Shown piece by piece: positions 24,994 through 61,080 of a DNA stretch of 64,000 bases. How positions within the stretch are numbered: the first letter of the stretch is position 1; every line of letters begins with the position of its first letter. The notes beneath the pieces are model-generated. The model was given only the letters and a program-made list of their open reading frames with translations, made no database searches and was not told the origin of the DNA. The position numbers and the translations under genes were made by a program. Origin of the DNA: Gammaproteobacteria bacterium (GTDB lineage Bacteria; Pseudomonadota; Gammaproteobacteria; JAJDYQ01); assembly GCA_963662865.1 (NCBI GenBank), contig OY759969.1, positions 1,424,565-1,488,564 on the forward strand. The letters run 5' to 3'.

Positions 24994-25040
24994 GCCGAGG
25001 TGGTGAAATTGGTAGACACGCTAGCTTCAGGTGCTACCAG
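24994..25040 (+). pseudogene. 5' fragment of a tRNA-Leu (acceptor 5' strand, D-arm and anticodon arm only, no T-arm or 3' acceptor)
   Basis: GCCGAGGTGGTGAAATTGGTAGACACGCTAGCTTCAGGTGCTAC parallels the first ~45 nt of the downstream tRNA-Leu (GCCCAGGTGGCGGAATTGGTAGACGCGCCAGCTTCAGGTGCTGG). It then diverges. No TTCAAGT T-loop and no complementary 3' acceptor strand follow. Confidence 0.4.
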
Positions 25041-25180: not shown

Positions 25181-25267
25181 GCCCAGGTGGCGGAATTGGT
25201 AGACGCGCCAGCTTCAGGTGCTGGTCTACGTAAGTAGGTGGAGGTTCAAGTCCTCTCCTGGGCACCA
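25181..25267 (+). tRNA. tRNA-Leu (anticodon CAG), 87 nt including CCA
   Basis: Full cloverleaf: acceptor GCCCAGG/CCTGGGC, D-loop AATTGGTAG, anticodon stem CCAGC/GCTGG with loop TTCAGGT (CAG), long variable arm, T-arm GGAGG-TTCAAGT-CCTCC, and 3' CACCA. Confidence 0.85.
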
Positions 25268-29835: not shown

Positions 29836-31053
29836 TCAAGCTATTCCTTGAGCCAATACAGCTTTTTTATGGTCATATACATGATCAGTTATACTGCCAT
29901 CTTTAATCTTTTCCACCACCTCATCAATAATAAAGAGCGGCACTAAAAACCATTCTTTGGGTGAAACAGGATTTCCGAATCTATCATCAATGGTTATATC
30001 TAGCTTTGCATTTTCAAAGAACCTGTGAAGAAGATTTTCCAGCTTTACTCGATTTATATTGAATAACTCGTAGGTTGCGACCACCTCTACATCAGCCATC
30101 AAAAACGTAGGATCAACCTTTGCATTTGCAATACGCTTTTCAACTTCTCCACCCGTTACACCAATTTTATGAATAACATCCCGACTTTTGTTCACAACCG
30201 GATGGTCTAGTTTGCTCCTCAGAACATAGATTGTTCCGCTCTCAGCGTCATCTTCACCAATTACATCATCGAATAATGACCCCGCTGAAAGAGAAACAAT
30301 TCTACGGCCAGCCTCATCTTCGTAGAGCGCCTTTTGAAGCGAGCGTAAAAGTAAATCACTTTCTGTACGGTTGTCATAAATTACGCGCAGCCTGTAGTCA
30401 TTCTTATCAAAGCCGTGATTTCGCTCTTTACTGAATTCAGCGACATATGCCTTTTGCCCATTGACTATAAACCAATCACCTTGCTCGATTTTCGCCATGT
30501 AATCACGATCTTTTTGATCTTTAAGCAACTGAGCTTCCACAAGCCCATGCTTTAAATCACTTTGAACCTTATCGAATAACGGTTTGAACTTGTCAAAGTC
30601 TTCGCAAGGAGTACGGTTTGCTATTTCTTCTGCCGCTTTTTTGTCTGCTTGAGACTTCACATGTTTCAGGTAAGTGATATCACCTTCTTTAGGTGCTTCG
30701 ACACCTAGCTCTGCCAATAACTCTTCATCTGTATTGTATTCGGCAGGCGGCTCAGCTACTAGCAAACCTCCAGCTAAAAGCCCTTGATGGTCAGTTTCTT
30801 CAACAAGATTTCGACACCCTTCCTTCTTTCGAATCTGATCAAGCCTTGTGGCGTACAAGCGTTCAAAGATATCTTTGTTCTCACCATGCTCTGGAGCATG
30901 CCCATGTTCTTCTACGAACCGCTGTATTTCCTCAAACCCTGCAATAATTCGCTCTTCTTTTGGTGTTCTGGCCGTTTTTTTCTCTTGCTTGATTTCTACA
31001 CCAAGCTCAGCCAACAGCTCTTTCTTGGTTTTACTTTGCTTTGCCTCAGCCAT
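29836..31053 (-). CDS. T5orf172 (GIY-YIG-like) domain protein, 405 aa (YeeC-like)
   Basis: The C-terminal domain carries the T5orf172 signature: TIYVLRS...IHKIGVTGGEVEKRI...LENLLHRFF...SPKEWFLV. The N-terminal half has two copies of an (E/K)ELLAELGVE-containing helical repeat. Its start overlaps the upstream helicase stop by 8 nt. Confidence 0.7.
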   Translation of the reverse strand: MAEAKQSKTKKELLAELGVEIKQEKKTARTPKEERIIAGFEEIQRFVEEHGHAPEHGENKDIFERLYATRLDQIRKKEGCRNLVEETDHQGLLAGGLLVAEPPAEYNTDEELLAELGVEAPKEGDITYLKHVKSQADKKAAEEIANRTPCEDFDKFKPLFDKVQSDLKHGLVEAQLLKDQKDRDYMAKIEQGDWFIVNGQKAYVAEFSKERNHGFDKNDYRLRVIYDNRTESDLLLRSLQKALYEDEAGRRIVSLSAGSLFDDVIGEDDAESGTIYVLRSKLDHPVVNKSRDVIHKIGVTGGEVEKRIANAKVDPTFLMADVEVVATYELFNINRVKLENLLHRFFENAKLDITIDDRFGNPVSPKEWFLVPLFIIDEVVEKIKDGSITDHVYDHKKAVLAQGIA

Positions 31054-33097
31054 TACTTTCCTCCATCACTTTACGTTGAAGGAAGGCAATACCTTCTGCC
31101 ATACGCTTTTCCCAAGGATCAGCTGCGGTGATCTCCGGTAAGCGCCCACGCTCCTTTTTGAACTTCAAAGCTCGTTCTGCAAGCTCCCGTGCCTCTTCTT
31201 CGGTAAGATTGATTTTTTTTGCTGCAATAACAGCAGCCACCTGCTTTAAGCTATCTTCAGTCATTGCTTTAGCGAGAATTGCATAGGCCTCGCTGAATGG
31301 ATTGATTCGGTCAATTAAATCAATGTCCAGATCAGTCACATTCATAGCATATTTTCTTACGCCGTCGATAAAGGCAGTACTGCCCCCACGCTCAATATCA
31401 TCATCTTGGCTAGCAATTTCTTTGGCTTTTTGAGTAAGGTTAAGCGCAGCAACAGCATGCTGCCTTACAGCCTCCTGATCTTCCGCATCTAGTTCTGGGT
31501 ATTTATCTTTAACGATTTTCCCCATACGTAACTGCGTTAATTCTTCAGGCACCATCTCTTCGTCAAACAGGCCTCGCTCAAGAGCGTTTTTGTCTTGAAC
31601 GAAAGCGGTAATTACTTCGTTCAAATCTTCCTGACAGATTCGCTGTGCATCTTTGCTTTTAGGCTCGAACAAGCCATTTATCTCTATCTGGAACTGCCCT
31701 GTAGAGGGGTTAAATCCCACATTATTGCCATTCGGATCATAACCATTCTCACCGTAGTCAAAGCCTTCTGCGGGGGTTCCTTGGCTATTTTTGGGTGTGA
31801 AGTTAAATTTAGGCGCTAACACCTGTTCCATAAGGAGGCTGGCAGCAATCGCTTTTAAAGTATCGTTAACTGCATCAGTGACAGCTTCCTCTGAAGCATC
31901 TGGCTCTGCAATCAAGTTAGTAAATCGAGAATGGGTTTTACCTTCAGCATCACGGGTTGCTCGACCGATAATCTGTATAATTTCAGTAAGGCTAGAGCGG
32001 TAGCCAACGGTTAGGGCATGCTCGCACCAAATCCAGTCAAAGCCTTCCTTCGCCATACCTAGCGCGATAATAATGTCGACATGATCTCGATTGCTTTTGG
32101 CTTCAGGAAGTTTTAACGAAGCGGAAACCTGATCACGCTTTGATGAATCATCAACCAAATCCGCTATCTTGAGTATTTTGCCACTTGTTGTTTTTACTAA
32201 TTGGAATCCAGTATCTAAATCTACACCCTGCCACTCGCCAAGCTCATCAATAATATGCTCAACTTCCGTGTTTTTACCACGCTTGGTGCTCTCACGAGAA
32301 TTCACATTGGGGATATGAATGATGGTTTTTTCGTTCGGGTCTAATACGTTCAAAATATCATCTGCGTATGAGTCGGAATAAAAGTAATACCCAATATCCA
32401 AGGTTTTTAGATATTCATAACCGTTAAGCTGTTCGTAGTAGGTATACGTGACCGTATCAAAGTTAGCTTCATCCTGTGGCGAAAGAACAGCTTTTGCATC
32501 ACCTCTAAAATATGAACCTGTCATTGCGACGAGATGTACTTTGTCACGGGCGATAAATTGCCCTAAATGAGCGCCGAGCTTATTGTCTGGGTTAGCGCTA
32601 ACATGGTGAAACTCATCTACGGCGATCAGGCAATCATCAAAGGCAGGCACGCCCAGGCGATCTACCGCAAAACGAAAGGTCGCATGGGTGCAAACCAATA
32701 TTTGATCATCCCCATCAAGAAAGACTTTTACTGAGTTGACTTTACCGCCACCTTCTCCGGGGGAATTACACAAATTCCATTTCGGCTCGACACTCCAATC
32801 CCAGTAGAACCCAAAGTCCGAAAGCGGCTCATTGTTAAAGCTGGCACCAATGGATTTTTCAGGAACTACGATAATGGCTTTTTTAACGCCTTGATTATTG
32901 AGCTTATCTAAAGCCACAAACATCAAAGCACGGCTCTTACCAGAAGCAGGGGGAGACTTGATAAGTAGATATTGCTCACCACGCTTTTCGTAAACGCGCT
33001 CTTGCATCACCAGCATACCTAGTTCATTGGGTTTTTTAGAACTCCCATTGCTGGCATAATTAACAGATACTGAGGGTATAGATTTATGTTCCGTCAT
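31046..33097 (-). CDS. SF2 DEAD/DEAH helicase, type III restriction Res-like (YeeB-like), 683 aa
   Basis: Walker A (SPPASGKS), DEFH (AVDEFHHV), QIIGRATR motif VI, plus a ~230-aa C-terminal extension. It lies between the methyltransferase and the T5orf172 gene with short gaps or overlaps. Confidence 0.75.
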   Translation of the reverse strand: MTEHKSIPSVSVNYASNGSSKKPNELGMLVMQERVYEKRGEQYLLIKSPPASGKSRALMFVALDKLNNQGVKKAIIVVPEKSIGASFNNEPLSDFGFYWDWSVEPKWNLCNSPGEGGGKVNSVKVFLDGDDQILVCTHATFRFAVDRLGVPAFDDCLIAVDEFHHVSANPDNKLGAHLGQFIARDKVHLVAMTGSYFRGDAKAVLSPQDEANFDTVTYTYYEQLNGYEYLKTLDIGYYFYSDSYADDILNVLDPNEKTIIHIPNVNSRESTKRGKNTEVEHIIDELGEWQGVDLDTGFQLVKTTSGKILKIADLVDDSSKRDQVSASLKLPEAKSNRDHVDIIIALGMAKEGFDWIWCEHALTVGYRSSLTEIIQIIGRATRDAEGKTHSRFTNLIAEPDASEEAVTDAVNDTLKAIAASLLMEQVLAPKFNFTPKNSQGTPAEGFDYGENGYDPNGNNVGFNPSTGQFQIEINGLFEPKSKDAQRICQEDLNEVITAFVQDKNALERGLFDEEMVPEELTQLRMGKIVKDKYPELDAEDQEAVRQHAVAALNLTQKAKEIASQDDDIERGGSTAFIDGVRKYAMNVTDLDIDLIDRINPFSEAYAILAKAMTEDSLKQVAAVIAAKKINLTEEEARELAERALKFKKERGRLPEITAADPWEKRMAEGIAFLQRKVMEESNG

Positions 33098-33099
33098 GC

Positions 33100-35874
33100 T
33101 CAGGATACCTTTTTCTTAGAGTTGGAAGTGGATTTGGTCATTTTTGTATAGAGATCAAAAAGCTTTTCAAGGCGCTCAGTGTCATTCTTAAAACGACGAC
33201 CGATGTAAATGCGCTCTAGTACTTCATCATTACGCTCATGTGCCCTACGTAAATCGTCGAGCATTTTTTCAGGGTCATAAAGATCAGCAATTGTTGCAGG
33301 AAAATGAGCTTCGCGGGCTAAAAGAATATCTTCAGCAGATTTCGTTAAGTCTTCTTTATTTTTTACAGTCAGCTTAGGAACAGGAAAAGTGTTCCAGCCG
33401 AGGGTATTGGAATAGTTAAAACGCATTTCCAATCGCCCGCAGACCGTACCAATCCATACCCAATGAACACGTGAGGTAATAAGTGAAAAATTCCATAAAG
33501 GCGCGTCATACATCGCAAAGTTACGGTTACCAACTATTGAATCACCTTCGATATAACCTACTGGCAAAAAATTTCTGTTTTCTGAGCTAACACAAGGAAC
33601 AACTATGACACTAGAGCATTTCTGATATCGGATTTCACCGAATTTATGAGGTGTACTTGCGACTGCGACTGTTTGAGATTTGGAACTTGTAGACCGCATA
33701 TTTTTAACAATTTCAAATCTATCTTCTATTGACTTTAGACGTCTCGCTTCTGCGACATTCTGATCATCGACCCATAAGCAATATCGTTGCTTTCCGTTTA
33801 TAAGCTCCTCTGAACCGATAAATTTGCGAATAAATTTACATACAGCTTCTCGCGACTCACGCTCTATTAAGCTTACGTCCGAACTATCCAGCAACAACCC
33901 CCCACCATCAGTAGGCTTGCTTCCCCAAACCATAGCCCCCCTATCATCTCCAGCCTTCAATACTGGATAAACAATTATATTAGGTGCTGCTATCAAATAA
34001 GCATTTATGTTATTTACCTTCTTTTCTATGGACTCACCATCGTCGGAGATTGAAAATAGGCGTCGCGCCTTACCAGCTTTATTTGATATCCCGACGATCA
34101 CAACGGTAATGCCTGCATTGTGACTAGCCAAATTAGCCCACTTGAAAGAAGTATGTGCAAAAGATATCTCATACCCTGACGAAAAAATCAAAGGCCACAA
34201 TATGAATACTTGCTCTCCTTGGTTTATTGAATTTGTCGATACGAACGCTGATACGGCATCTGTTTTTGTTCCGAAGTCTGCTGCTTTCATGAACCAACCA
34301 GCTACATAATCTAATGACTTCCATTTTTTTGTACGGTGAGAGAAGATATCTTTCAAATCAGATTTTTGCTCTTTGGATTGCCGAGCTTTACCGATATATG
34401 GTGGATTACCACAAATATAAGTTTCGCTTCCTTCATTTTCGAAGTCGATTTCAGCTTGGTCTAGCGGAGAACTGAATAGGTCATCAGCTTGAAGCTTAAC
34501 GCCTAGCCCAGTAGGGGGACATATACTGAACCAATTAAGCCGAAGTGCATTACCGCAAATAATCCAATTCTTTGCATCGAGGGGCAGGAATTCTACTAAC
34601 GCCTCTTTCTGCCCCAGATAGAGAACATCGCATTGGTATTCGGCAATAATTAGAGCGAGACGCGCAATTTCTGCCGGAAAGTCTCGGAGCTCTATACCGC
34701 GATAGTTGGTCAATGGAATATCTGACTTCCTACCAGATTCACCTCTACGTTTATTTATCTCGGCTTCAATGGCTCGCATTTCTTTGTAAGAAATAACGAG
34801 GAAATTTCCCGATCCGCAGGCAGGATCAAAAACTCGGATTTTCGCCATGCGTTTGCGAAGATTGAGCAGCTTTTGAGGACTATCACCAGCCTCTTCAAGC
34901 CTTGCTCTGAGGTCATCCAGAAAGAGTGGATTTAAGACTTTGAGAATGTTTGGAACGGATGTGTAATGAAGCCCTAGCGCGCCACGCTCTTCTTCGTCAG
35001 TTACGGCTTGGATCATTGAGCCAAAGATATCTGGATTGATTTTCGTCCAGTTCAAATTCCCGATATGAATAAGATAAGACCGAGCAATCTTACTAAAGCT
35101 CGGCACATCAGTATTGCCAGAAAATAGGTCACCATTCACGTAGGGGAAGGTATCAGCCCATCCAGGTAACTTAGCGCTTGCTCTTTTTTCAATGGCGGTA
35201 TCCATTGCACGGAATATTTCACTCATAACTTCATGAGTATTTGAGGAGTCCCGCACACTCATTTGCTCAATGGTTTTGGTGAAGAGCCCTTCACCATTGA
35301 AGATATCGGTATCTTCTGCAAAGAAACAGAAAATCAGGCGCGCCATAAAGTGATTCATATCATGACGGCGCTCTGCTGTACCCCAATCAGGGTTATTTCT
35401 TAGCAGCTCAACATAGAGTTTGTTTAAGCGGCTGGTGGCGCGAATATCAAAGGAACTTTCACGGATTTGTTTAACCGTGCTTATACCAGCCAACGGCAGG
35501 AAAAAACCAAAGTGATTAGGGAAGTCACTATAGTCACAGGCAACTGTTTCGCCTGAAGCAATCTCTTCAGCTTCAAAATTTACGCCGTCTGTTGCCAGAA
35601 TGAATTGGGCTTTAGCCTTGGTAGTCGCAGAGCTATCCTTGAGTCTATTTAGGGTGGCAGAAACCTCACCCTCTTCGCACGCTAGAATATGAATATTGCT
35701 GCGCTGTAAAACCCCACCATCAATATCGGAAGCATTAGTGGAGTCACTCTTCAGGCGCTTAATAGTGGTCGCCTTGTTGCCGAATGCTTCCAAGAAGGCA
35801 TAGGGGAAGCTAGCCGCATCAAAAGCTTGCTTGGCTAAATTACTTATCGCTTCTTCTATCTCAACAGCGTTCAA
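33100..35874 (-). CDS. Gamma-class N6-adenine DNA methyltransferase of the MmeI/PglX-like (type IIG/IIL-like) family, 924 aa (YeeA-like)
   Basis: SAM motif I (FDPACGSGNFLV) and catalytic motif IV (YICGNPPYIGK). Family-typical blocks are LIFCFFAEDT, FPYVNGDLF, FVSTNSINQGEQV, KPTDGG, CLWVDD, SSENRNFLPVGY, GRLEMRFNYS, NTFP, LYDP..M..L..AHE..D. A C-terminal TRD-like region is present. The N-terminal ~150 aa lack a clear D-x-ExK nuclease motif. Confidence 0.8.
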   Translation of the reverse strand: MNAVEIEEAISNLAKQAFDAASFPYAFLEAFGNKATTIKRLKSDSTNASDIDGGVLQRSNIHILACEEGEVSATLNRLKDSSATTKAKAQFILATDGVNFEAEEIASGETVACDYSDFPNHFGFFLPLAGISTVKQIRESSFDIRATSRLNKLYVELLRNNPDWGTAERRHDMNHFMARLIFCFFAEDTDIFNGEGLFTKTIEQMSVRDSSNTHEVMSEIFRAMDTAIEKRASAKLPGWADTFPYVNGDLFSGNTDVPSFSKIARSYLIHIGNLNWTKINPDIFGSMIQAVTDEEERGALGLHYTSVPNILKVLNPLFLDDLRARLEEAGDSPQKLLNLRKRMAKIRVFDPACGSGNFLVISYKEMRAIEAEINKRRGESGRKSDIPLTNYRGIELRDFPAEIARLALIIAEYQCDVLYLGQKEALVEFLPLDAKNWIICGNALRLNWFSICPPTGLGVKLQADDLFSSPLDQAEIDFENEGSETYICGNPPYIGKARQSKEQKSDLKDIFSHRTKKWKSLDYVAGWFMKAADFGTKTDAVSAFVSTNSINQGEQVFILWPLIFSSGYEISFAHTSFKWANLASHNAGITVVIVGISNKAGKARRLFSISDDGESIEKKVNNINAYLIAAPNIIVYPVLKAGDDRGAMVWGSKPTDGGGLLLDSSDVSLIERESREAVCKFIRKFIGSEELINGKQRYCLWVDDQNVAEARRLKSIEDRFEIVKNMRSTSSKSQTVAVASTPHKFGEIRYQKCSSVIVVPCVSSENRNFLPVGYIEGDSIVGNRNFAMYDAPLWNFSLITSRVHWVWIGTVCGRLEMRFNYSNTLGWNTFPVPKLTVKNKEDLTKSAEDILLAREAHFPATIADLYDPEKMLDDLRRAHERNDEVLERIYIGRRFKNDTERLEKLFDLYTKMTKSTSNSKKKVS

Positions 35875-35880
35875 CGAAAA

Positions 35881-36183
35881 TCACCCTTTCTGCCCATTCT
35901 TACCACTACCCGTCTTCTGACTGTTTATCCAACTCTGGACATCTTCTCGCCTGAAACGCCAGCTACCACCCACCTTAGAACCGGGCAATTTACCTTCAGC
36001 AGCAAGGCGATAAGCCGTTTTTTCAGCTAATTTAAGATATTCTGCAACCTCTTTTTTGACCAGACCAACATCATAACAGCGATTTAGCGCCAGATTGACC
36101 TGGGATTTACTGATTCCTGTCTCCTGCTCCAGGGGCTGGGCGGTATAGCGCGAGGATTCCGCTTCCTCCTTTTGCAGGGCCAC
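35881..36183 (-). CDS. Excisionase/AlpA-type helix-turn-helix protein, 100 aa (candidate regulator of the downstream module)
   Basis: C-terminal motif LPGSKVGGSWRFRREDVQSWI is typical of the excisionase-family HTH. It ends 6 nt before the methyltransferase start. Its start overlaps the toxin stop. Confidence 0.5.
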   Translation of the reverse strand: MALQKEEAESSRYTAQPLEQETGISKSQVNLALNRCYDVGLVKKEVAEYLKLAEKTAYRLAAEGKLPGSKVGGSWRFRREDVQSWINSQKTGSGKNGQKG

Positions 36184-36437
36184 TAGTTAGTGACCAGAAT
36201 AATCTTCCCGTCTTGCATCTCCAGCTCCAGCACAATCCGATAACTCATATTGATCGAAACTGACGATAGATCCTTCAGGCGACCTTCCAGGCTGTGCAGC
36301 CTTAATAAGGGGTGGTAAGGGTCTAACTCCAGCAGTTCGAGTGTTTTCCTGTATTGGTTGTGTATCTCTGGATGCTTCCGCAAGAATTTCTTGGCGCGCC
36401 TGATATAGCTATACGGGTATATCAGTGTGTATGGCAT
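36183..36437 (-). CDS. Type II toxin, RelE/ParE superfamily
   Basis: 84 aa. HSLEGRLKDLSSVSINMSYRIVLEL...IILV matches the RelE/ParE core (H.L.G.L...S..I...YRI). Its start overlaps the upstream antitoxin stop by 1 nt. Confidence 0.6.
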   Translation of the reverse strand: MPYTLIYPYSYIRRAKKFLRKHPEIHNQYRKTLELLELDPYHPLLRLHSLEGRLKDLSSVSINMSYRIVLELEMQDGKIILVTN

Positions 36438-36688
36438 CAGCCCAGTACTCGCTTCATATGCTCATCTACGCTTCCGGTTTTGTAGTTACCGTTGGCTATA
36501 TCGCTACGGGCTTCCTGGAGAGCGATATCCAGCTCGTATTCGCGCAGTTTGTTGTAGGTATTGAAGTCGAGAACAACGTACTTACGTTCGCCGCGCACAG
36601 TAATGACGGCTTCCTCGTCCTGCTGGAGGGCGGATTCGACAACGGATACGCCTTTGGTCTTGAGATCGCTGGCGGTGATGCTGGTCAT
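36437..36688 (-). CDS. Type II antitoxin, Phd/YefM family
   Basis: 83 aa. The N-terminus (MTSITASDLKTK...VITVRGERKYVVLDFNTYNKL) is the Phd/YefM fold. It sits immediately upstream of the RelE/ParE gene. Confidence 0.6.
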   Translation of the reverse strand: MTSITASDLKTKGVSVVESALQQDEEAVITVRGERKYVVLDFNTYNKLREYELDIALQEARSDIANGNYKTGSVDEHMKRVLG

Positions 36689-36996: not shown

Positions 36997-37230
36997 CTAT
37001 ATTCCCTTATTCTCTGGTGTCGTTGACCTGAGCGAAATAAACAAATCAACGTCTGTAGATAGGTTGTTAGCTGTCTCTTTAGCGAAGGACCCGGAGAATT
37101 CCCAACTGGAGAGATAAGCTCCAGCCCATTGACAAATCGAAGGCACAACTGCATTCGCCGCAGCTTTTGCCGAGTCGTAGTTGACAGCATACTTAGCAAG
37201 TACCGATTGAACGTATTGATCTTCGGTCAC
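36997..37230 (-). pseudogene. Truncated minimal nucleotidyltransferase (pol-beta superfamily/MNT-like) remnant, 77 aa
   Basis: It has the GS-x(n)-DxD nucleotidyltransferase motif: FSGSFAKETANNLSTDVDLFISL. The ORF ends after ~30 more residues, shorter than typical 95-140-aa MNT proteins. No HEPN partner is evident. Confidence 0.3.
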
Positions 37231-37312: not shown

Positions 37313-40300
37313 TCAATGCACCGCTCCCGACTGAGCTGCCCACTTACTGTTATTAATAGCCAGATCAAGCGTCAGCTCGAATAGCGCGTCTCGCTTTTCC
37401 TTGAATAGCTCTTTGTCATAGCTATCCTCCGGAAGATGCTCATCGAGGACCTTGCCAACCCGATCTCTCACACGTAGACGGGTGTCACTGGTCTTATACC
37501 AATCCTGCACCAACACCTTCGGTTTCTCCTCGGTCAGGCGCTTCAGTAAAGCCTTGGCGGCCAGGCGAAGTGTTTGCTCCTCGGCCTTGGTCATCTTGTC
37601 TTTGCGGAGCAGGTCATAGATCTCGAGCTCATCTTCGGTGAGCCCTTCCCGGATGTGCCGCTCGTTTTCTTCTTTCAGGTCCTGCGCGAATTTCACCAGC
37701 TCGGCGAAGGCGGCATCGGCTGAGGTGCTGCCGGCGTTGTAGTTGTCGATGATGTCTTGCAGGCGTTCGGCAAAATCGCGGCGGGTGCGGTTCTGGTTGA
37801 GCATGTCATTAAGTTTTTTCTCAAGAAAGGCCCGGAGGTCGGCAATCTCAATGTTCTTGTAGCTAGCCTGTTTGAAGTCTTTTTTGAGCTTATCGAAATC
37901 GACTTTACTGAGATCCCAGCCCTGCCCCTTCTGCTCAATTTTGTAACCGACCTTGCCCTCTTTAACGCCCTTGAAGTCCGCATCATCAACAATCACGCTT
38001 TCATCTAGCAGTTCGTTGATCTGCTTGACGGCTGAGTCGATGTCCTGCTGCTCGATGATGCTGTCGACCACGCCGCACAGATACTGGAATACGACTACTT
38101 TACGGACCACCGGCTGGCCGAGTACCTCGGGCTTACTGGCCTCGTAGAGCGCTGAGATGGTGTTCTGATAAACCTTGAAAGACTTACGCCACTCATCTTT
38201 AGTCAACAGCTGATCAGCCCAGGTTTTGAACAGCCCTACTTTGGTGAAGATGTCACCGGTTGCCAACGCTTCATCAATATCGATGTCCCGCTCGGCACAA
38301 AAGACCGTGCCCTGTTCAATCGCTTCGTCGAGTAAGCGAAACAGTTCGTCTTTATCTTTCACCGGCGGATCGTCGGTACCTGCATCGCCCTGGCCGTAGT
38401 CCTTGATGGCCTTTTTCAGCCGCCCGATGACGCCGTAGTAGTCAACGATCTCGCCGTTCTTTTTCTCAACACCGTTAATTCGGTAGGAACACACACGGTT
38501 GGCTCGGGCGATGGTCTGCATCAGCGTGTGGTCTTTCTGCGGCTTGTCGAGGTACAGCGTTGACACGGTCGGTGCATCGAACCCGGTCAGCCACATGGCA
38601 CAGACAAACACGAGCTGCAGCGGGTGCTCGGGGTCTTTGAAGTTGTACTCGAGATCATGGCCGTGCTCATCGACGTGTTCCATGCGCTTGCGGTGCGGTC
38701 GCATGTCGAGGTCCTGCTCGTCGAACTTCTCTTCTTCGCCGTTCTCGGCACTGACGACTACGGCCATTTCGACCTTGCGCATATAGTCGATCGTCTTCTT
38801 GAGCCGGGCTTTATGAACTTCATCCTGTGACGTCTTAAGCTCGCCGCGCAGCTTCTTAATCTCCTGCTTCCATCGCAGCTTTACTTTGTCGTGCATCTTC
38901 ACCGCCGTGAACTTGTCCACGGCGATCACCATGCCTTTACCCAAATAACCCCGGCGCGGGAAGTGAAAGACGATGTCATCGGCGATGGTGTCCAGGCGGT
39001 CATCCCGCTTGATCACCTCGAGCTCGCTGGCGAACTTGCGCTCCAGCTTCTCCTGCTGGGCGTCATCGAGGTTCTCGTCCTCGAGAATCTCGCAGAACTC
39101 CTCGCTCAGGTCTTCGTTCTGGTTCAGCACCTTGGGCACACGCTTCTTATAAAAGAGTGGCACGGTGGTGCCGTCGTCCATCGACTGGCTGAAGTTGTAC
39201 TCAGAGACGTATTCGCCAAACCATTCGTTGGTCTTGCGGTCGCGGCCCAGCAATGGTGTACCGGTAAAGGCCAAATACTGGGCCTTGGGCAGAGCCGCCC
39301 GCAGGTTCTCGGCCAGTGACTTGTATTGGGTGCGATGGGCCTCGTCGACAATGACGATGATGTCGTCGCGATTGGACAGCAACGGATAGTCCTGACCTTT
39401 CGGCCAGCGAAATTTCTGAATCAGCGTAAACACCAGCCGCTTGTTCTGCCCGAGGAAGGTACGCATCTGCTCGCTGTCCTTCGGCTGTGCGGCATCGGAC
39501 TTTTTGACGGTGTTGGTGTTGAGGAAATTGCGGTAGATCTGACCGTCGAGATCGTCCCGATCGGTAATTACTACGAAACTGTAGTTACCCTGGCATTTGC
39601 GGAAGATCTTCCGCGCATAGAAAATCATCGAGAAACTTTTACCCGAGCCCTGGGTGTGCCAGAACACACCGAGCTTGCCGCCGAATTCCTCGCGGCGCAG
39701 GAATTTGTCGAAGCCCTTGTTCACACCGATGAACTGATGGTTCTGGGCGATGATCTTCTGCGTCTCTTTGTGATAGATGACGAAGTTCTCGATGTAGTCG
39801 AGCAGCTTGTCATGCGGACACAGGCCGGCGAGAAAACGCTCCGCGCTGGTGCCGTTCTCGCTGATCTGCTCGCGCTTGATCTTTTCCTTCTCGTCGTCGG
39901 GGCGGAGCCAGTGGAAGAAATGCTCCCACTCGGCCGTCAGGCTGCCGACGCGCGTTTCGATACCATTGGAGAACACACACAGCGCGTTGGCGAGGAACAG
40001 CTGCGGGATATCGGCCTTGTAGTTGGTCAGGTTGTCGTCGTAAGCCGAGCGCAGTTTGATGTTGGAGTTTTTCAGCTCGATGAACACCAGCGGCAGTCCG
40101 TTGATGTAGAGCAGAATATCCGGGCGCCGATAGCTCGCCTTGGCCGCCGCACTCGTGCTCTGAATCCACAACTGAGTGACGGCTAGAAACTGGTTGTGCG
40201 GTGAGGCGGGGTCATTGAAATCGATGACCTTGACTCGTTCCTTGCGGTTTCGGCCTTGCTCATCTTTGAACTCGACCCGCACGCCGTCGCGAATCTGGCC

Positions 40301-40588
40301 GTCCACCTCGCGATTGGCGGCAATCATGGACATCGCCTGACGCTTGTCGCACAGCTGTTTGAGTGCATCATCAATCGCGGATTCGGGGATGCCAGGATTC
40401 AACGCGATGGCCGCAGCCTTTAAGCGGTCGTGCAGGATGACATCGCGTTTGTCCTTGCGCCCGGACTTATCGTTGTTCAAGTCGGCGGGATCAGAAGTGA
40501 AGCAATTCAGCGTGTCGTAGCCATAATCATCACGCAGGCGTTGCAACATCGCCTGTTCGATATCGTCTTCCGATATGAAGTTAGGCAT
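37313..40588 (-). CDS. hsdR: Type I restriction enzyme R subunit HsdR
   Basis: 1091 aa. N-terminus MPNFISEDDIEQAMLQRL is typical of HsdR. It has a PD-(D/E)xK nuclease region, SF2 translocase motifs (TQGSGKS, DEAH-like VDEAHRTQ) and a C-terminal helical domain. Confidence 0.9.
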   Translation of the reverse strand: MPNFISEDDIEQAMLQRLRDDYGYDTLNCFTSDPADLNNDKSGRKDKRDVILHDRLKAAAIALNPGIPESAIDDALKQLCDKRQAMSMIAANREVDGQIRDGVRVEFKDEQGRNRKERVKVIDFNDPASPHNQFLAVTQLWIQSTSAAAKASYRRPDILLYINGLPLVFIELKNSNIKLRSAYDDNLTNYKADIPQLFLANALCVFSNGIETRVGSLTAEWEHFFHWLRPDDEKEKIKREQISENGTSAERFLAGLCPHDKLLDYIENFVIYHKETQKIIAQNHQFIGVNKGFDKFLRREEFGGKLGVFWHTQGSGKSFSMIFYARKIFRKCQGNYSFVVITDRDDLDGQIYRNFLNTNTVKKSDAAQPKDSEQMRTFLGQNKRLVFTLIQKFRWPKGQDYPLLSNRDDIIVIVDEAHRTQYKSLAENLRAALPKAQYLAFTGTPLLGRDRKTNEWFGEYVSEYNFSQSMDDGTTVPLFYKKRVPKVLNQNEDLSEEFCEILEDENLDDAQQEKLERKFASELEVIKRDDRLDTIADDIVFHFPRRGYLGKGMVIAVDKFTAVKMHDKVKLRWKQEIKKLRGELKTSQDEVHKARLKKTIDYMRKVEMAVVVSAENGEEEKFDEQDLDMRPHRKRMEHVDEHGHDLEYNFKDPEHPLQLVFVCAMWLTGFDAPTVSTLYLDKPQKDHTLMQTIARANRVCSYRINGVEKKNGEIVDYYGVIGRLKKAIKDYGQGDAGTDDPPVKDKDELFRLLDEAIEQGTVFCAERDIDIDEALATGDIFTKVGLFKTWADQLLTKDEWRKSFKVYQNTISALYEASKPEVLGQPVVRKVVVFQYLCGVVDSIIEQQDIDSAVKQINELLDESVIVDDADFKGVKEGKVGYKIEQKGQGWDLSKVDFDKLKKDFKQASYKNIEIADLRAFLEKKLNDMLNQNRTRRDFAERLQDIIDNYNAGSTSADAAFAELVKFAQDLKEENERHIREGLTEDELEIYDLLRKDKMTKAEEQTLRLAAKALLKRLTEEKPKVLVQDWYKTSDTRLRVRDRVGKVLDEHLPEDSYDKELFKEKRDALFELTLDLAINNSKWAAQSGAVH

Positions 40589-41921
40589 GGGCGGCCTCGG
40601 GTTCAGTGGTCTCTTCCTGCATGCTCGGCGGGAACTGTATGTCGAGGTCTTCCACCGAGAGCTTGCCGGAGATCAGGCGTGGGAGGAGAAGATCACGGGT
40701 TTGTGTTGCAACAGTATTTTCAAGTCCAATCTGATCTTTAAGATCCAGTATTGGCTTCACAGCATCTTCAAATTGCTGCTGAAGAGTAGCGGGAGGAGTC
40801 AACATCTTATGGTGTTTGAGAAAACTCTCAAACTGATAATTACTGATCCCTGTGGATTGAACTTGAAATATCCCGACGAGCCCTTGCTCATAAAACAACT
40901 TCAGATACTGCTGCATCAGATACGGCGAAACCTTTTGACGGTCGAATCGAATCAACTTACAGAAACTGGCTGGAATCACCGTTTCCGGAAGGGAGCTCAA
41001 AAGCGAACTAGATACTCGAACGTTTCGTCCAAGCAACTGATTCTTGCTACCACCAGATACTTCGAACACAAAATCATCTGGCTGCATGATGCGGGACTTG
41101 AGATTTGACGCCGTATGAAAACGAAACGGCATTGAAGACAAGTCCGCTCGCTGGACCTTTGGAATGTCTGTTCCGCGAATCACAAATGCCGACTCGCTGT
41201 ACCCAGATGTCTGATCCTCTTCACCCCAGCCCCCTCCAATGTAGTGCTCGATGAGGGCTCCCATGCTCTTCGGTTCCCAACCTTCAGGCACACCTTTGAC
41301 GAACTTGGCGGCTTGGTGGCCAGGGAAGCGCATGCGGACGAACCATTCGCGGTAGAGCTCCTCGGCCATCTTTTCGAGCAGGGCGATGCGGCGTTTGTTG
41401 GTCTCGATCAGGTCGTCATACGCCGACAGAATTGCAGCGATTCGTCGCTTCGCCTCTGGGCTGGGCGCTATTACCGGAACCTTACGTAAATCCGTTAACC
41501 CAACGAACTGCTGGCTGGTCCCAGTAAGGAAGGTGTCAAGAGCCGCCTGACCAATGGAGCTTGTAAGATAGTAGTATAACCACATACCGTCATCTCGGCT
41601 GCGGCTTTTGAATAACCCAATATTTTTGATCGCGAAATTAGGTCTATCTCGGACAAGCGCCATCTGACCGACGGTTCCGATCATTGAGAACAAGACATCC
41701 CATTGATCCACTTTGCTACGTTTATTAACCGCATCAAAATCAGCAGTGCTGATGTTGTAGGCGCCATCAAGTTTGATCTGACCTTCTTTTAAATTCTTGG
41801 ATGTAATGAGGGGATACCCATCATCTGCAGGCTTTGGCGTGTCGTGAGTCCCGTCCGCCACACGAAGACAAAAGTCGGACGACTTTTCCACAGTCCACCC
41901 AGCTGGAAGTACAGCTTTCAT
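40581..41921 (-). CDS. hsdS: Type I restriction-modification specificity subunit HsdS (two target-recognition domains)
   Basis: 446 aa. Its stop and start overlap hsdR and hsdM. It has conserved central and C-terminal coiled-coil spacer motifs (LPRLISGKLSV). Confidence 0.8.
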   Translation of the reverse strand: MKAVLPAGWTVEKSSDFCLRVADGTHDTPKPADDGYPLITSKNLKEGQIKLDGAYNISTADFDAVNKRSKVDQWDVLFSMIGTVGQMALVRDRPNFAIKNIGLFKSRSRDDGMWLYYYLTSSIGQAALDTFLTGTSQQFVGLTDLRKVPVIAPSPEAKRRIAAILSAYDDLIETNKRRIALLEKMAEELYREWFVRMRFPGHQAAKFVKGVPEGWEPKSMGALIEHYIGGGWGEEDQTSGYSESAFVIRGTDIPKVQRADLSSMPFRFHTASNLKSRIMQPDDFVFEVSGGSKNQLLGRNVRVSSSLLSSLPETVIPASFCKLIRFDRQKVSPYLMQQYLKLFYEQGLVGIFQVQSTGISNYQFESFLKHHKMLTPPATLQQQFEDAVKPILDLKDQIGLENTVATQTRDLLLPRLISGKLSVEDLDIQFPPSMQEETTEPEAAHA

Positions 41922-44002
41922 TCGTTGTTCGCCAGCTCTTGAACATTAGCGAGGATTACATCTTCCAAGCCCTTGGAAACCTGACTTATCGAGGCAAGGT
42001 CGTCACTCATTCTTACTAGGTCATCGATGAACTCCTCCTCCGTCTTACCGTCCTCCTCAATCACAACGCCGACATAGCGGCCCGGGTTGAGTGAGTAGTC
42101 CTGCTCCTTGACCTCGTCGAGATCAGCCAGTTTGCACAGGCCGGTAACGTCTTCGTATTTGGCCTCGGGGAAACGTTCCTGTAGCCAGTGGATGTGGCCG
42201 AAGAAGCTTTCGGCATTCTTAACCTCTGCATGCAGAGTTTCGAGGGCAGTCTTGAGGTATTTGGTGGCGCGATCAGACGTCTGGCGTTTGCCCGCCTCCT
42301 TGGCGTTCTCCGCAAGTGTTTTCTCGTGACGGCGCACAGACTTATCGATCTGCTTCAGACAGCCGTGCAGTTGAGTGAAGAAGGGATCGAAGGTGGTGCG
42401 CAGTGCCTGCTGGGCGGCGTTCTGCTTGTCAGCTGTCGTTTTACCACCGTTAATCTTTTGATAAGCGGCGTAAGCCTTCTGAAGCGAGTCGAGATCATCC
42501 CAAGTTTCTACCAGGCTGGCGACGGCGTCTTTACCCGTTTTGTCAGCGAGAACTTCTAAAATCTGTGCCGACACCGGCTCTACTTGAGATTTGTTCTCGG
42601 CGAGGCGTTTCATGCCCGCAGCGAAATAACCATCGATAAGGTTCAAGAACTCGTCGCGACGACCTTTGTGCAGGCGGCTGATGATGGCGATGTTCTGAAT
42701 CTGTTCCGCCGAGAACTCGCGATGGGCGCGATCGATCTGGGTGAATATGTTGCGGGCGTCGATGAACAGGATGCGATCGTCGGTCTTGCCCTTGTCGAAG
42801 AACCAGAGCGTGGCCGGCAGGGTGACGGTGTAGAACATGTTCGACGGCAGAGTAAGCATGCCGTAGATAAGACCCTTTTCTATGAGGGTCTGACGAATAT
42901 CGGCCTCTGAATGACGGGCATCGGAGGCGGAATTGGCCATGACGAGCGCGGCACGGCCAGAACCCTCTTTCAGCGAGGTGGCGAAGAGATTGATCCAGAG
43001 GTAATTGGCGTTGGGGACGGTTTCCTTGCCCTTGTCCGACTTTTTGGCCTTGGTTTTCTTGCGTGGGATACCGTATTCGTTGAAGCGCGGGTCATTCTCC
43101 ACGTCTGCAAGCGAGACCTCATCCACGTTGAACGGGGGATTGGCGAGCACGTAGTCGAACTTGCCGAGCGAATCAAAATGATCCTCGTAATAGGTGATGC
43201 CCTGCTTGATCTCGCCGCGCAGGCCGTTGACTGCGAGGTTCATACGGGCGAGCTTGACGGTTTCGCTCTCTTTCTCCTGCCCCGATACGAACACACTGGT
43301 ATCGGTGCCCTGCGCTTCCAGCTCCTTGCGGTGCTCTTCGATAAACTGCGCCGACTGCACGAACATACCGCCCGAGCCGCAAGCCGGGTCGAAGACCGTG
43401 CCGCCGTGGGGCTCGATGATCTCGACCATGAGCCGCACCACCGAGCGGGGCGTAAAGAAGGTGCCGCCGCCCTGTCCTTCGGCCAGTGCGAACTTGCCGA
43501 GGAAGTATTCGTAGATGTGACCAAAAATATCGCCGGTTGTGTGGTCCGGAATGTTGTCGAACTGCCGGAGCAAATCGAACGGCAGCGTCTTCATCTGCTC
43601 GGTGCGGGTGAGGCGGTGGTACTCGTCCTTCGGCAGGCTGCCTTCGAGCTCGGGCTTGTAGGTCTCGATGGACTCCATCGCCTCTTCCAGCGCCTTGGCG
43701 ATGTCCTGATCTTCGGGCAGATCGAGCAGGTAGCTGTAGCGGGCGTGACCCGGGAGGTAGAAACCACACTTGGCAATGGCGATTTCTTCGATCGGTTTCT
43801 CGCGACGGGTGCCTTTGAGCTTGTCGAACTCGGCCTGGATGGCTTTTTCATGCCGACGGTAGTTGATGTCGGCGAACTTGAGGAAGATCAGGCCGAGGAC
43901 AGGGGTGCCATATTCCGAGGCTTTGAGGTCGGAGTTGGCGCGGAGGTTGTCGGCGGCAGACCAGAGGTCGTCTTGAAGTTGTTTTAGTTGTTCCGGGGTC
44001 AT
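41918..44002 (-). CDS. hsdM: Type I restriction-modification N6-adenine methyltransferase HsdM (long form, 694 aa)
   Basis: HsdM_N domain, SAM motif (DPACGSGGMFV) and catalytic NPPF (VLANPPFN). Its start overlaps hsdS by 4 nt. Confidence 0.9.
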   Translation of the reverse strand: MTPEQLKQLQDDLWSAADNLRANSDLKASEYGTPVLGLIFLKFADINYRRHEKAIQAEFDKLKGTRREKPIEEIAIAKCGFYLPGHARYSYLLDLPEDQDIAKALEEAMESIETYKPELEGSLPKDEYHRLTRTEQMKTLPFDLLRQFDNIPDHTTGDIFGHIYEYFLGKFALAEGQGGGTFFTPRSVVRLMVEIIEPHGGTVFDPACGSGGMFVQSAQFIEEHRKELEAQGTDTSVFVSGQEKESETVKLARMNLAVNGLRGEIKQGITYYEDHFDSLGKFDYVLANPPFNVDEVSLADVENDPRFNEYGIPRKKTKAKKSDKGKETVPNANYLWINLFATSLKEGSGRAALVMANSASDARHSEADIRQTLIEKGLIYGMLTLPSNMFYTVTLPATLWFFDKGKTDDRILFIDARNIFTQIDRAHREFSAEQIQNIAIISRLHKGRRDEFLNLIDGYFAAGMKRLAENKSQVEPVSAQILEVLADKTGKDAVASLVETWDDLDSLQKAYAAYQKINGGKTTADKQNAAQQALRTTFDPFFTQLHGCLKQIDKSVRRHEKTLAENAKEAGKRQTSDRATKYLKTALETLHAEVKNAESFFGHIHWLQERFPEAKYEDVTGLCKLADLDEVKEQDYSLNPGRYVGVVIEEDGKTEEEFIDDLVRMSDDLASISQVSKGLEDVILANVQELANNE

Positions 44003-44037: not shown

Positions 44038-45876
44038 TCATACTCGCTCCGCAAGATCCCGCTCTAACCAAGCCGGATCCCAAATCTCTTCCGCGAGCTG
44101 GCGGTATAGCGCTTGGCGTGAGTCCATATCAGCTTTCTTGAAATCCTTGTGGGCCTTGAAGGGCAGCGCCGACTCCTTGATAAAGTGCTTAAAGCCCGGA
44201 TTGTGACTGTAAGCGCCTTCATGGAGGCTCCGCGCCAGCAGATTCTGACCGTTGTAGTGCTCCAGTTTTTTCATGTAGGGCAAATCGCCATAGCTGGCAT
44301 TGAAGCTCTTCGGCAACAGCAGGAGTCCGCCGATTCGATCCCGGTACTCCAAGAAATCCGCTGGATGAATAAATTCATCTGTGTGCCGTTCCGGCTGATT
44401 GGCCCAGATATGTTCGATTTCGTATCCGTTTTTGCCTTTACGCTGAATGTATTCGGGGTAGTGGGATGCTCCACCCGCTGAGGTTTCAATGAAGTCCGTC
44501 ATTCGCGCCAGCATCCTGTGAATCTGCTGCTTATTCATGCCGTGCATGCTAAATCGATCATTTGACGCGAATGTTTCCGTTTCGCTGGCCAGCCTCTTTT
44601 CAAGTAGCTCAACAAGTTCAGATGCCGATTTACTCCGAATCTCTTTGATCACCAGAAACATAGCGTACTGCAGGTTCGAGTAACTAATCGCCCGCCAATT
44701 CCACACGCGCCGCGCAATCAGGATATTCAGATATCTCGAGACGATCCGGAGCTTCTGGCGAATCTGGTCTTCCGAGTCCGCCATCTTGAGGGGCGCTAGC
44801 AAGACCGGATACTGCAGGGTGAAGTTGTTCTGCGCATTGAAGTGAATGCACTCGAGCCCTGCGGTTAACGCGTTAGCTGCCTCACGGACCTTTTTGTACC
44901 AACGGGCGTAGAACGAGAATTCATTCTGGATGAACTCCGCGAAATCCGAATCGGTCGCCAGCCCGAGGGCGTCCTCATGCGCGCGGACCCAGCGGTGAAA
45001 CTCGGTACCGATCAGATCGAAGTCCTGAGGCAGGGCGCCCCGCTTGCGCTCGCGAATGCTCTTAGCATGCTGACTGCGCAGCCAGGATTTAATCGCATCG
45101 GAGTCTTCCTCCTTGCCCAGGGTTTGCAGCTCGGCAATCATCTTGCGCCAGACCACGCTAGCCTGATTGCGTTTGTCCGGATCTGAGATATTGGCGAGCA
45201 AATAGCCCTTCAGCATATCGGTGGCCGTCAATGACAGGCCACGATCATTCATCGTCTCGAAGATCGTATAAGCGTCATCATCCGAGTACGCAGTGATCTC
45301 GACCAGATGCACGTTTTCGATCAGCCAATCCGTGAAATACGGCAAGGCCTGTTGCTCAAGCTCCTCGGGGAATTGATCCTCGATATCGCGATGGCGTGCC
45401 AGAATATTGGCGACGGATTCTGGCTGGTCCGCCTCATCGAACGGCGAACCGGTAAACAGCGCCTCCATGCAGTCGTTGCGCTCGGGGACATCAAGATTGA
45501 ACGAGCGTTTGCCGTACTTCTGCGAAAAAATCAGCTCGGCGAGCTGACCCTGCTGATTGGCGTCGTCTAACAGTTTGTGGAGATAGACGAGCAGTAAGGT
45601 CAGCGTGGTGAGGCGCTGCTGGCCGTCGATAATGAATTTCTGGCCGTCGCGGTCACTAATGATGATCGAGCCGAGAAAATAGTGGCCGTATTTTTCAACC
45701 TCTGAGCGTTTGTGGGTCGCGTCGTAGCTTTCCCGGAACTTCTCGACTAGATCATCGATCAGCTCTTGGACTTGCTTGGGCTGCCAACGGTATTCGCGCT
45801 GGTAGTAGTCGATGGCGTACTTTGAGCCACCGAGGAGTTTTCGGAGGTTTTGCGCGTCGCCGCGGATTTCTTTCAT
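44038..45876 (-). CDS. GmrSD-like type IV (modification-dependent) restriction endonuclease: DUF262 (ParB-like NTPase) N-domain plus DUF1524 (His-Me/HNH-like) C-domain
   Basis: DUF262 signature IIDGQQRLTTL near the N-terminus. C-terminal His-Me finger block GYEIEHIWANQ. 612 aa. It is first in the operon with hsdM-hsdS-hsdR (36-nt gap to hsdM). Confidence 0.75.
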   Translation of the reverse strand: MKEIRGDAQNLRKLLGGSKYAIDYYQREYRWQPKQVQELIDDLVEKFRESYDATHKRSEVEKYGHYFLGSIIISDRDGQKFIIDGQQRLTTLTLLLVYLHKLLDDANQQGQLAELIFSQKYGKRSFNLDVPERNDCMEALFTGSPFDEADQPESVANILARHRDIEDQFPEELEQQALPYFTDWLIENVHLVEITAYSDDDAYTIFETMNDRGLSLTATDMLKGYLLANISDPDKRNQASVVWRKMIAELQTLGKEEDSDAIKSWLRSQHAKSIRERKRGALPQDFDLIGTEFHRWVRAHEDALGLATDSDFAEFIQNEFSFYARWYKKVREAANALTAGLECIHFNAQNNFTLQYPVLLAPLKMADSEDQIRQKLRIVSRYLNILIARRVWNWRAISYSNLQYAMFLVIKEIRSKSASELVELLEKRLASETETFASNDRFSMHGMNKQQIHRMLARMTDFIETSAGGASHYPEYIQRKGKNGYEIEHIWANQPERHTDEFIHPADFLEYRDRIGGLLLLPKSFNASYGDLPYMKKLEHYNGQNLLARSLHEGAYSHNPGFKHFIKESALPFKAHKDFKKADMDSRQALYRQLAEEIWDPAWLERDLAERV

Positions 45877-61029: not shown

Positions 61030-61052
61030 TAAACCCCTTAATTTTGTAGAGA

Positions 61053-61080
61053 AGGGGGGGGGGGGGGGGGGGGGGGGGGG
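61053..61080. repeat. 28-nt homopolymeric G (plus) / C (coding strand) tract 23 nt upstream of the autotransporter start codon
   Basis: Direct count in the sequence: G x28 at 61053-61080. On the coding strand this is C28-TTCTCTACAAAATTAAGGGGTTT-ATGATG, with AAGGGG as the likely SD. Confidence 0.9.

Follow-up and report, generated by a model that had tools for sequence, protein, structure and literature searches.

The locus described here raises the question of whether a methyltransferase, a helicase, and a GIY-YIG-type protein that are encoded side by side make up a single restriction system and, if so, of what kind. It lies in a 64,000-nucleotide stretch of DNA from a gammaproteobacterium (assembly GCA_963662865.1, contig OY759969.1, positions 1,424,565 to 1,488,564), which we call the window and number from its first base. 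Listing of the open reading frames (ORFs), together with direct reading of the DNA, gave six ORFs, all on the minus strand, that run from 36688 down to 29836 with no gap or overlap of more than 8 nucleotides at any junction. The last three are a DNA methyltransferase gene of the yeeA/dnmA type (35874 to 33100; 924 amino acids), a superfamily 2 (SF2) helicase gene of the yeeB type (33097 to 31046; 683 amino acids), and a T5orf172 gene of the yeeC type (31053 to 29836; 405 amino acids); the first two are separated by 2 nucleotides, and the last two overlap by 8 nucleotides. Ahead of them stand a helix-turn-helix (HTH) gene and a Phd/RelE toxin-antitoxin pair. An earlier, sequence-only reading of this DNA had described the compact six-gene array and likened the trio to the YeeA-YeeB-YeeC cluster of Bacillus; the coordinates and junctions were reproduced, and the likeness was confirmed by domains, motifs, and gene order. 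All four of the ORFs that were queried (those for the T5orf172 protein, the helicase, the methyltransferase, and the HTH protein) have identical sequences in a public protein collection.

Clusters of this kind are not new. Morgan et al. (2009) divided the homologues of MmeI into two sets, the second of which lacks the PD-ExK motif and "invariably" has, as its neighbors, a YeeB-like helicase and a YeeC-like GIY-YIG protein; they proposed that the methyltransferase provides specificity and protection while its partners cut DNA, in the manner of a type I system but with single-strand modification (PMC2731913). Judged by its sequence features, the locus in the window is an intact DnmA/YeeA-YeeB-YeeC member of this second group: likeness to MmeI begins at about residue 100, the first 100 or so residues differ and lack PD-ExK, and an SF2 helicase gene and a T5orf172 gene follow downstream, the helicase being assigned by its motifs and gene position rather than by direct alignment to B. 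subtilis YeeB. It is therefore the correct recognition of a known cluster, not a discovery. The sequence-only reading had also presented the mechanism as experimentally undefined, and in the literature to mid-2026 we found no paper that defines a mechanism or names the system; however, the same model had already been put forward by Morgan et al. (PMC2731913), and experiments on family members already exist.

The Pfam search recovered the complete MmeI domain set in YeeA, with matches to MmeI_N, MmeI_hel, MmeI_Mtase, MmeI_TRD, and MmeI_C at E values of 1e-16 to 1e-115 (2.7e-33 for MmeI_N). In addition, the PADLOC model REase_MTase_IIG matched the protein from end to end with 953 bits, and phmmer aligned residues 89 to 915 to MmeI (PDB 5HR4; E = 2.5e-140). 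The gene, read on the minus strand, encodes a degenerate nuclease-like N-terminal domain (35398 to 35874), a helical spacer (35122 to 35364), a gamma-class N6-adenine methyltransferase domain (34054 to 34899) with the S-adenosylmethionine motif DPACGSGNF (34801 to 34827) and the catalytic NPPY (34396 to 34407), a target recognition domain (TRD; 33370 to 33987), and a C-terminal domain (33133 to 33363). The TRD (residues 601 to 760) is the only poorly conserved part of the protein: across 63 homologues its conservation is 0.44 to 0.54, compared to 0.85 to 0.97 in the methyltransferase core, which is the pattern expected of diversifying sequence specificity.

Several comparisons bear on the N terminus of YeeA, in which the sequence-only reading had recognized no nuclease motif. 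The catalytic PD-ExK motif is indeed missing, but the domain itself is present, since the MmeI_N match is to the family of the MmeI nuclease domain. The phmmer alignment begins at residue 89 of YeeA, opposite residue 108 of MmeI, and a 36-member family profile aligns to MmeI only from position 81, corresponding to MmeI residue 100; both alignments therefore miss the segment of MmeI that carries D70, E80, and K82. In a global hhalign alignment, which had a low probability and for which residues 100 to 173 of the MmeI sequence used were checked against the family-profile alignment, MmeI D70 fell opposite an invariant residue of YeeA, D50, while E80 fell opposite L64 and K82 fell opposite C66. 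Structure prediction for residues 1 to 170, based on a 76-sequence alignment, gave a model with a predicted local distance difference test (pLDDT) score of 84.5 and values of >90 over most of residues 11 to 120. It is concluded that the N terminus of YeeA keeps a restriction-endonuclease-like fold but without the catalytic E-x-K, and the loss of E-x-K agrees with the class definition of Morgan et al. (PMC2731913). As a separate observation, yeeA starts with TTG (35872 to 35874), and many homologues also have a non-ATG start, TTG or GTG, which raw translations show as L or V at the first residue of MNAVEIEE; such starts may keep translation of the methyltransferase low.

The second protein, YeeB, had been called ResIII-like. 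It has the full SF2/DExH motif set, but the ResIII and DEAD profiles match it only below the Pfam cutoffs. The SF2 core (approximately residues 39 to 400; 31898 to 32983) contains the Walker A sequence PASGKS (32933 to 32950) and the motifs DEFHH (32603 to 32617), TGSYFR (32504 to 32521), and QIIGRATR (31952 to 31975), and in a 20-sequence alignment the residues PASGKS, DEFHH, TGS, and QIIGRATR were invariant. The core is followed by a conserved C-terminal extension of approximately 280 amino acids that has no known function (31049 to 31897). The phrog_16 "DNA helicase" family matched the protein with an E value of 2.5e-9; no Pfam, NCBIfam, or PADLOC model reached its threshold, and sequence and profile searches found no significant relative among solved structures. 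More than 8000 homologues were found, and YeeB is 74 to 87% identical to its counterparts in genomes of Alpha-, Beta-, and Gammaproteobacteria, Firmicutes, Bacteroidota, Nitrospirota, Chlorobi, Lentisphaerae, Verrucomicrobia, and Acidobacteria. Identity across phyla is 74 to 90%, for example, between Gammaproteobacteria and the Firmicutes Cohnella and Tumebacillus, and YeeB is more conserved than either YeeA or YeeC. Among 1.84 billion representatives clustered at 50% identity there were only 508 matches at an E value of ≤1e-30, many of them fragmentary, and YeeB thus forms a compact lineage.

The T5orf172/GIY-YIG identity that had been proposed for the third protein held up at the level of sequence profiles. 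YeeC matches T5orf172 (46.9 bits) and MUG113 (59.7 bits) over residues 273 to 383, in both cases above the Pfam cutoff, and this C-terminal domain of the GIY-YIG superfamily is encoded at 29905 to 30237. Its putative active site comprises GTIYVL (30220 to 30237), HKIGVT (30154 to 30171), R307 and N310 (within 30121 to 30138), E339 (within 30025 to 30045), and PKEWF (29947 to 29961), all on the minus strand. In 60 homologues the GIY-like Y276-V-L, the KIG of the second motif, R307, N310, E339, and E367-W-F are invariant. NCBI labels these homologues "GIY-YIG nuclease family protein"; their identity to YeeC is 54 to 91%, the nearest named relative being that of Aurantivibrio plasticivorans (91%). 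T5orf172 proteins have been studied as nucleases in at least part of the literature on phage ICP1 and PLE (e.g., PMC8263062). The N-terminal 270 amino acids of YeeC are conserved and uncharacterized. They include two copies of LLAELGVE, at residues 13 to 20 (30994 to 31017) and 112 to 119 (30697 to 30720), both of which are conserved in homologues. Parts of these copies fall in segments that are modeled with low confidence and are probably flexible, and the copies may thus represent a short linear interaction motif. PADLOC returned no match to YeeC, and no significant solved-structure relative was found by sequence and profile searches.

The three genes stay together in other genomes. In 80 loci anchored on the helicase and taken from species-representative genomes, yeeC directly follows yeeB wherever enough DNA is present, and with few exceptions yeeA is upstream of yeeB and shares its strand; among the exceptions, L003 shows no yeeA over a distance of 8 kb, and L080 has yeeA downstream. 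Conversely, the downstream partners of yeeA are conserved in approximately 60 of 62 loci. A survey of this kind had been suggested as a check on the sequence-only reading, and the linkage of methyltransferase, helicase, and T5orf172 genes was kept in nearly all of these loci that contain enough DNA. Ordered trios occur in Proteobacteria, Firmicutes, Bacteroidota, Nitrospirota, Chlorobi, Verrucomicrobia, and Acidobacteria. Beside the highly conserved clade to which the copy in the window belongs, there is a second, divergent clade, in which YeeB is 40 to 47% identical and whose members are carried by plasmids from Aeromonas, Escherichia coli, Vibrio, lactobacilli, and Staphylococcus. This clade has the same gene order on the E. 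coli plasmid pEC96-32kb and on two E. coli chromosomes, with 36, 46, and 32% identity of YeeA, YeeB, and YeeC, respectively, to the proteins studied here. This comparison took in no B. subtilis sequences, and the B. subtilis copy is placed in neither clade. Homologues of YeeB are present on 266 plasmids, 120 of them conjugative. Phages essentially lack them: a search of 50,697 phage records gave 4 weak or partial matches, and in IMG/VR 28 contigs matched YeeB, many of them at the contig end.

One part of the cluster varies in content. In approximately half of the 62 loci, the yeeA-yeeB junction contains 0.3 to 2.7 kb of variable same-strand genes, and in one locus (L026) it contains approximately 7 kb; loci with such inserts include L011, L014, L016 to L020, L022, L024, L026, L029 to L034, L036, L037, L039 to L041, and L044 to L046. 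The inserted genes encode RhuM, a Schlafen/AlbA_2 plus HATPase_c_4 protein, GmrSD_N, NucS-like proteins, and at least five recurrent families without a Pfam match. The junction thus resembles a slot for cargo within the operon; in the window it is empty, with only the 2-nucleotide gap.

We consider it reasonably probable, although well short of certain, that YeeABC is a three-subunit restriction-modification (R-M) system whose mode of action resembles that of a type I or type ISP enzyme split into separate proteins. It can be envisioned that YeeA uses its own TRD to recognize a short asymmetric site and methylates one adenine, producing N6-methyladenine (m6A), on host DNA, and that the dead nuclease fold of YeeA has become a module for docking or signaling (an adaptor). 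At an unmethylated site, YeeA would engage YeeB, a DExH SF2 ATPase that would translocate on DNA, and YeeC would cut the DNA. The HTH protein, which is encoded 6 nucleotides upstream of yeeA, would probably control transcription of the operon, and the Phd/RelE pair would be a decayed hitchhiker. A role in defense is suggested by two observations, namely, that the TRD is the only fast-evolving part and that the neighboring genes are defense genes (PDC-M23, type I R-M, and GmrSD). The part assigned to YeeA is drawn by analogy from its homologues. YeeA of B. subtilis, renamed DnmA by Nye et al. (2020), produces m6A at GACGAG (PMC7261158), and both YeeA and a Moraxella homologue had no endonuclease activity (PMC2731913), so that by the same analogy YeeA of the window may be expected to methylate an asymmetric site and to lack nuclease activity when alone. 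Likewise, Piel et al. (2021) found that inactivation of yeeAB in Vibrio crassostreae 7F1_18 restored sensitivity to one group of phages (bioRxiv 10.1101/2021.05.05.442762), and a similar protective role may apply here.

Several results weigh against this proposal. To our knowledge, cleavage, ATPase activity, and complex formation have been shown for no member of the family. The full-length model of YeeC (pLDDT 71; predicted template modeling score, 0.39) did not match any nuclease structure significantly, so that the GIY-YIG assignment is based on sequence profiles alone, and YeeB had no significant match to the motors of type I, type III, or type ISP enzymes, either among solved structures or in PADLOC. 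In B. subtilis, deletion of dnmA left growth and plasmid transformation unchanged (PMC7261158), deletion of dnmA, yeeB, or yeeC left infection by three phages unchanged (PMC7261158, PMC9973331), and phage genomes show no depletion of the DnmA site (PMC9973331). Furthermore, the Vibrio experiment affected yeeA and yeeB and says nothing about YeeC (10.1101/2021.05.05.442762).

Some of these results would also fit a system that is guided by methylation but does not simply cut DNA, acting instead by BREX-like exclusion of replication or by abortive damage to nucleic acids inflicted by YeeB and YeeC in response to unmethylated DNA. The failure of Bacillus phages to avoid the DnmA site was taken by the authors to mean a "mechanism distinct from canonical R-M" (PMC9973331), and MmeI-type methyltransferases are related to PglX of BREX, as weak PglX and DrmMI matches to YeeA also indicate; the lack of any demonstrated cleavage speaks for this explanation as well. 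However, the PglX models scored only 20 to 22 bits, compared to cutoffs of 400 to 900; neither PglZ nor BrxC was found in the ten ORFs scanned (25.7 to 36.7 kb and 37.3 to 45.9 kb), nor was there a BrxL or DISARM partner in the locus or its neighbors, and the locus is not assigned to BREX. The operon also includes a conserved protein of a nuclease family, with invariant residues of the active-site type. We regard a noncutting mechanism as unlikely, although worth keeping in view.

A second explanation, which we think has a slimmer chance of being correct, is that YeeA is an epigenetic "orphan" methyltransferase that tunes gene expression beside nonfunctional remnants of yeeB and yeeC. It draws on the effects on gene expression in B. 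subtilis, where neither restriction nor a phage phenotype was seen (PMC7261158, PMC9973331), and on a 2026 preprint in which a Streptococcus mutans methyltransferase with the YeeA motif (DnmA) is called an orphan regulator (PMC13081822). Fernandez et al. (2023), who found the cluster to be conserved, concluded that it is a relic in B. subtilis, where YeeB and YeeC lack C-terminal stretches (PMC9973331); that loss sets the B. subtilis copy apart from the copy studied here, in which the three ORFs are full length and the catalytic motifs are intact. Moreover, relics do not evolve so as to keep YeeB 74 to 90% and YeeC 54 to 91% identical across phyla, and the trio is carried on conjugative plasmids, sits among defense genes, and has a diversifying TRD. 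The phage phenotype of the Vibrio knockout (10.1101/2021.05.05.442762) also argues against an orphan methyltransferase. It is highly improbable that YeeA is a stand-alone type IIG/IIL MmeI-like enzyme that restricts alone beside unrelated genes, since its full-length match to the type IIG model, which is its top PADLOC label, and its MmeI_N domain are outweighed by the replacement of E-x-K by L-x-C, the failure of the first 80 residues to align to the catalytic segment of MmeI, the lack of endonuclease activity in YeeA and its Moraxella homologue, and the conservation of two downstream partners.

A split restriction system of the kind that we favor can be placed among known systems as follows. 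The closest counterparts are the DnmA-YeeB-YeeC cluster of B. subtilis and the cluster of V. crassostreae 7F1_18, which share with the window the three genes, their order and strand, the composition of the trio (a PD-ExK-less MmeI-like methyltransferase-TRD protein, an SF2 helicase, and a T5orf172/GIY-YIG protein), and a location in a horizontally acquired, defense-rich region with toxin-antitoxin genes nearby. The copy in the window differs in that it belongs to the highly conserved clade and has an HTH_17 leader gene. YeeA is homologous to MmeI and DrdV, which are type IIL enzymes (a subgroup of type IIG), over the helical spacer, methyltransferase, TRD, and C-terminal domains, and probably shares with them the modification of one strand of an asymmetric site. 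It differs in having lost E-x-K, so that the nuclease and the motor would presumably be supplied in trans by the two conserved partners; MmeI-type enzymes, in contrast, have no conserved neighbors (PMC2731913). With E-x-K absent and the partner genes conserved, the protein does not fall within type IIG/IIL proper, even though the PADLOC type IIG model matches it.

The likeness to type ISP enzymes (LlaGI and LlaBIII) and to type I enzymes is one of presumed function: an m6A methyltransferase with a TRD, an SF2 ATP-driven motor, and a nuclease. Type ISP enzymes are single polypeptides that combine an Mrr-like nuclease, an SF2 motor, a methyltransferase, and a TRD. They modify one strand of an asymmetric site, as YeeABC would. 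In contrast, YeeABC is split over three polypeptides in the order methyltransferase, motor, nuclease, its candidate nuclease belongs to the GIY-YIG superfamily rather than being PD-(D/E)xK, and there is no separate HsdS. With three ORFs, a T5orf172/GIY-YIG candidate nuclease, and no sequence match to type ISP structures, the system is not a type ISP enzyme; a functional analogy is possible.

The genes upstream of the trio had been put forward as a source of regulation or addiction. Of these genes, the HTH gene alone recurs at other loci, and then only in the closest relatives. The gene (36183 to 35881, minus strand; GTG start) overlaps the toxin gene by 1 nucleotide, and its 100-amino-acid product matches HTH_17 with 60.5 bits over residues 44 to 89 (35917 to 36054), as an excisionase/MerR-like domain, and the "excise" domain with 49.5 bits. 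In 7 related loci (8 with the window), mostly those of the closest relatives, a homologue immediately precedes yeeA. The same position is occupied by an XRE-type HTH gene in 10 loci and by a VapBC module in 6 loci. Homologues covering residues 16 to 95 also lead unrelated mobile operons on plasmids. One is the first gene of an hsp20/ClpK heat survival cluster on >1000 Klebsiella plasmids (L083), and another is the first gene of an operon for SNF2, a DNA methyltransferase, and an AAA ATPase on an Aeromonas media plasmid (L084). The HTH_17 protein is probably a generic operon-leader regulator. We had also considered whether its N-terminal extension is a fusion scar and rejected this idea, homologues that span residues 16 to 95 being common on plasmids. 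Like the controller (C) proteins of R-M systems and MAD1 of MADS, it is encoded by a small HTH gene directly upstream of, and codirectional with, a methyltransferase gene; unlike them, it is present in only a subset of YeeABC loci. The locus is not a MADS system: the NCBIfam MAD1 model gave 68.3 bits, below its cutoff of 80, mad2 matched the methyltransferase only weakly and in part, and other mad genes are absent.

The idea of addiction is weakened, since the Phd/RelE pair is absent from all 80 related loci and the end of the toxin appears to be missing. The Phd/YefM-family antitoxin gene (36688 to 36437, minus strand; 83 amino acids) is intact, its product scoring 34.1 bits against PhdYeFM_antitox (cutoff, 29.8). 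The RelE/StbE/YafQ-like toxin gene (36437 to 36183, minus strand; 84 amino acids), which overlaps it by 1 nucleotide, gave only subthreshold family matches, and TIGR00053 covers profile positions 3 to 82 of 92. The toxin ends in ...ILVTN at the point where a 93-amino-acid homologue continues ...IDIGSHDDVY; the last 8 to 10 residues or so are missing, exactly where the HTH gene starts. Comparison with this homologue suggests that the toxin is probably C-terminally truncated and inactive. The pair is a neighbor and not part of the YeeABC system. Further upstream, in the 620-bp gap between hsdR and the antitoxin gene, a 77-amino-acid ORF (36997 to 37230, minus strand) has a GS...DVDLF motif and a weak NTP_transf_2 match (E = 0.036) and appears to be an N-terminal fragment of a nucleotidyltransferase gene. 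Together, the apparently truncated toxin and this fragment suggest that the stretch has been scarred by recombination and is not a module designed for regulation. A consensus scan for promoters and terminators between 29.5 and 37.4 kb turned up fewer sites than shuffled sequence did, and no site coincided with a gene boundary; it therefore speaks neither for nor against a single transcription unit.

The trio sits in a defense island of approximately 20 kb beside a tRNA-Leu(CAG) gene (25181 to 25267). Although six genes had been delimited, the codirectional run continues past 29836: after a gap of 29 nucleotides, yeeC is followed by a match to the Hachiman-like PADLOC candidate pair PDC-M23A/B (29806 to 25725, minus strand; 277 and 1083 amino acids; PADLOC E = 7e-104 and E = 0, respectively), the larger protein of which is a Hachiman HamB-like DEAD box helicase. 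This pair does not accompany YeeABC in related loci and is thus probably a separate defense system. On the other side lie a complete type I R-M system, hsdR (37313 to 40588), hsdS (40581 to 41921), and hsdM (41918 to 44002), and a GmrSD-type (type IV) restriction gene (44038 to 45876), all on the minus strand.

The sequence-only reading had taken AT richness and a place in a tRNA-Leu island as consistent with mobile defense cargo. The neighbors do make this a defense island, but the argument from base composition and the tRNA gene is weak. The island is a mosaic and only mildly AT-rich, as its unequal G+C content indicates: 43.8% for the six-gene array and 43 to 44% for the part with YeeABC and PDC-M23, approximately 54% for the type I R-M genes, and 46.5 to 49% for the flanking housekeeping genes. 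In addition, no ORF of integrase size was found between tRNA-Leu and 45.9 kb, and the far border of the island showed no direct repeat of the 3' end of tRNA-Leu. A 42-nucleotide copy of the 5' half of tRNA-Leu (24994 to 25035; 88% identical) lies 187 nucleotides upstream of the intact tRNA-Leu(CAG) gene; it was not recognized as a tRNA by ARAGORN or Rfam and is probably a tRNA gene remnant. Elsewhere in the window, a single ORF of 3379 amino acids (51041 to 61180, minus strand) has a G+C content of 65% in a region of approximately 47 to 52%.

The family to which this locus belongs is abundant, as the number of helicase homologues, the conjugative plasmids, and the many phyla attest. None of the library models that we searched reaches its threshold for YeeB or for the trio, and the methyltransferase is labeled type IIG by PADLOC; surveys are therefore likely to miss it as a system in its own right. 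The literature on it is in conflict, since it has been found to be inactive in B. subtilis, protective in Vibrio, and an orphan regulator in S. mutans. The copy in the window is intact and compact and has all of the catalytic-type motifs; close relatives can be obtained from many hosts, and a divergent version from two E. coli chromosomes and one plasmid. It offers a reasonable starting point for biochemistry.

Going a step further, we suggest, tentatively and with rather less than even confidence, that YeeABC may represent a distinct class of ATP-dependent restriction system, in which an MmeI-type, single-strand-modifying methyltransferase-TRD protein with a dead-fold adaptor works with a separate SF2 translocase and a nuclease of the GIY-YIG superfamily. 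Such a system would probably act at two sites, since safety after replication suggests that two inversely oriented unmethylated sites would be needed, as in type ISP systems. The family as a whole may be a modular platform, with approximately half of the related loci having variable cargo of defense type between yeeA and yeeB and with many loci carrying a small HTH gene or a toxin-antitoxin module ahead of yeeA. If this proposal is true, cleavage by a T5orf172/GIY-YIG protein under the guidance of an MmeI-type methyltransferase would be a new architecture for ATP-dependent restriction and would explain why these methyltransferases carry a dead nuclease domain.

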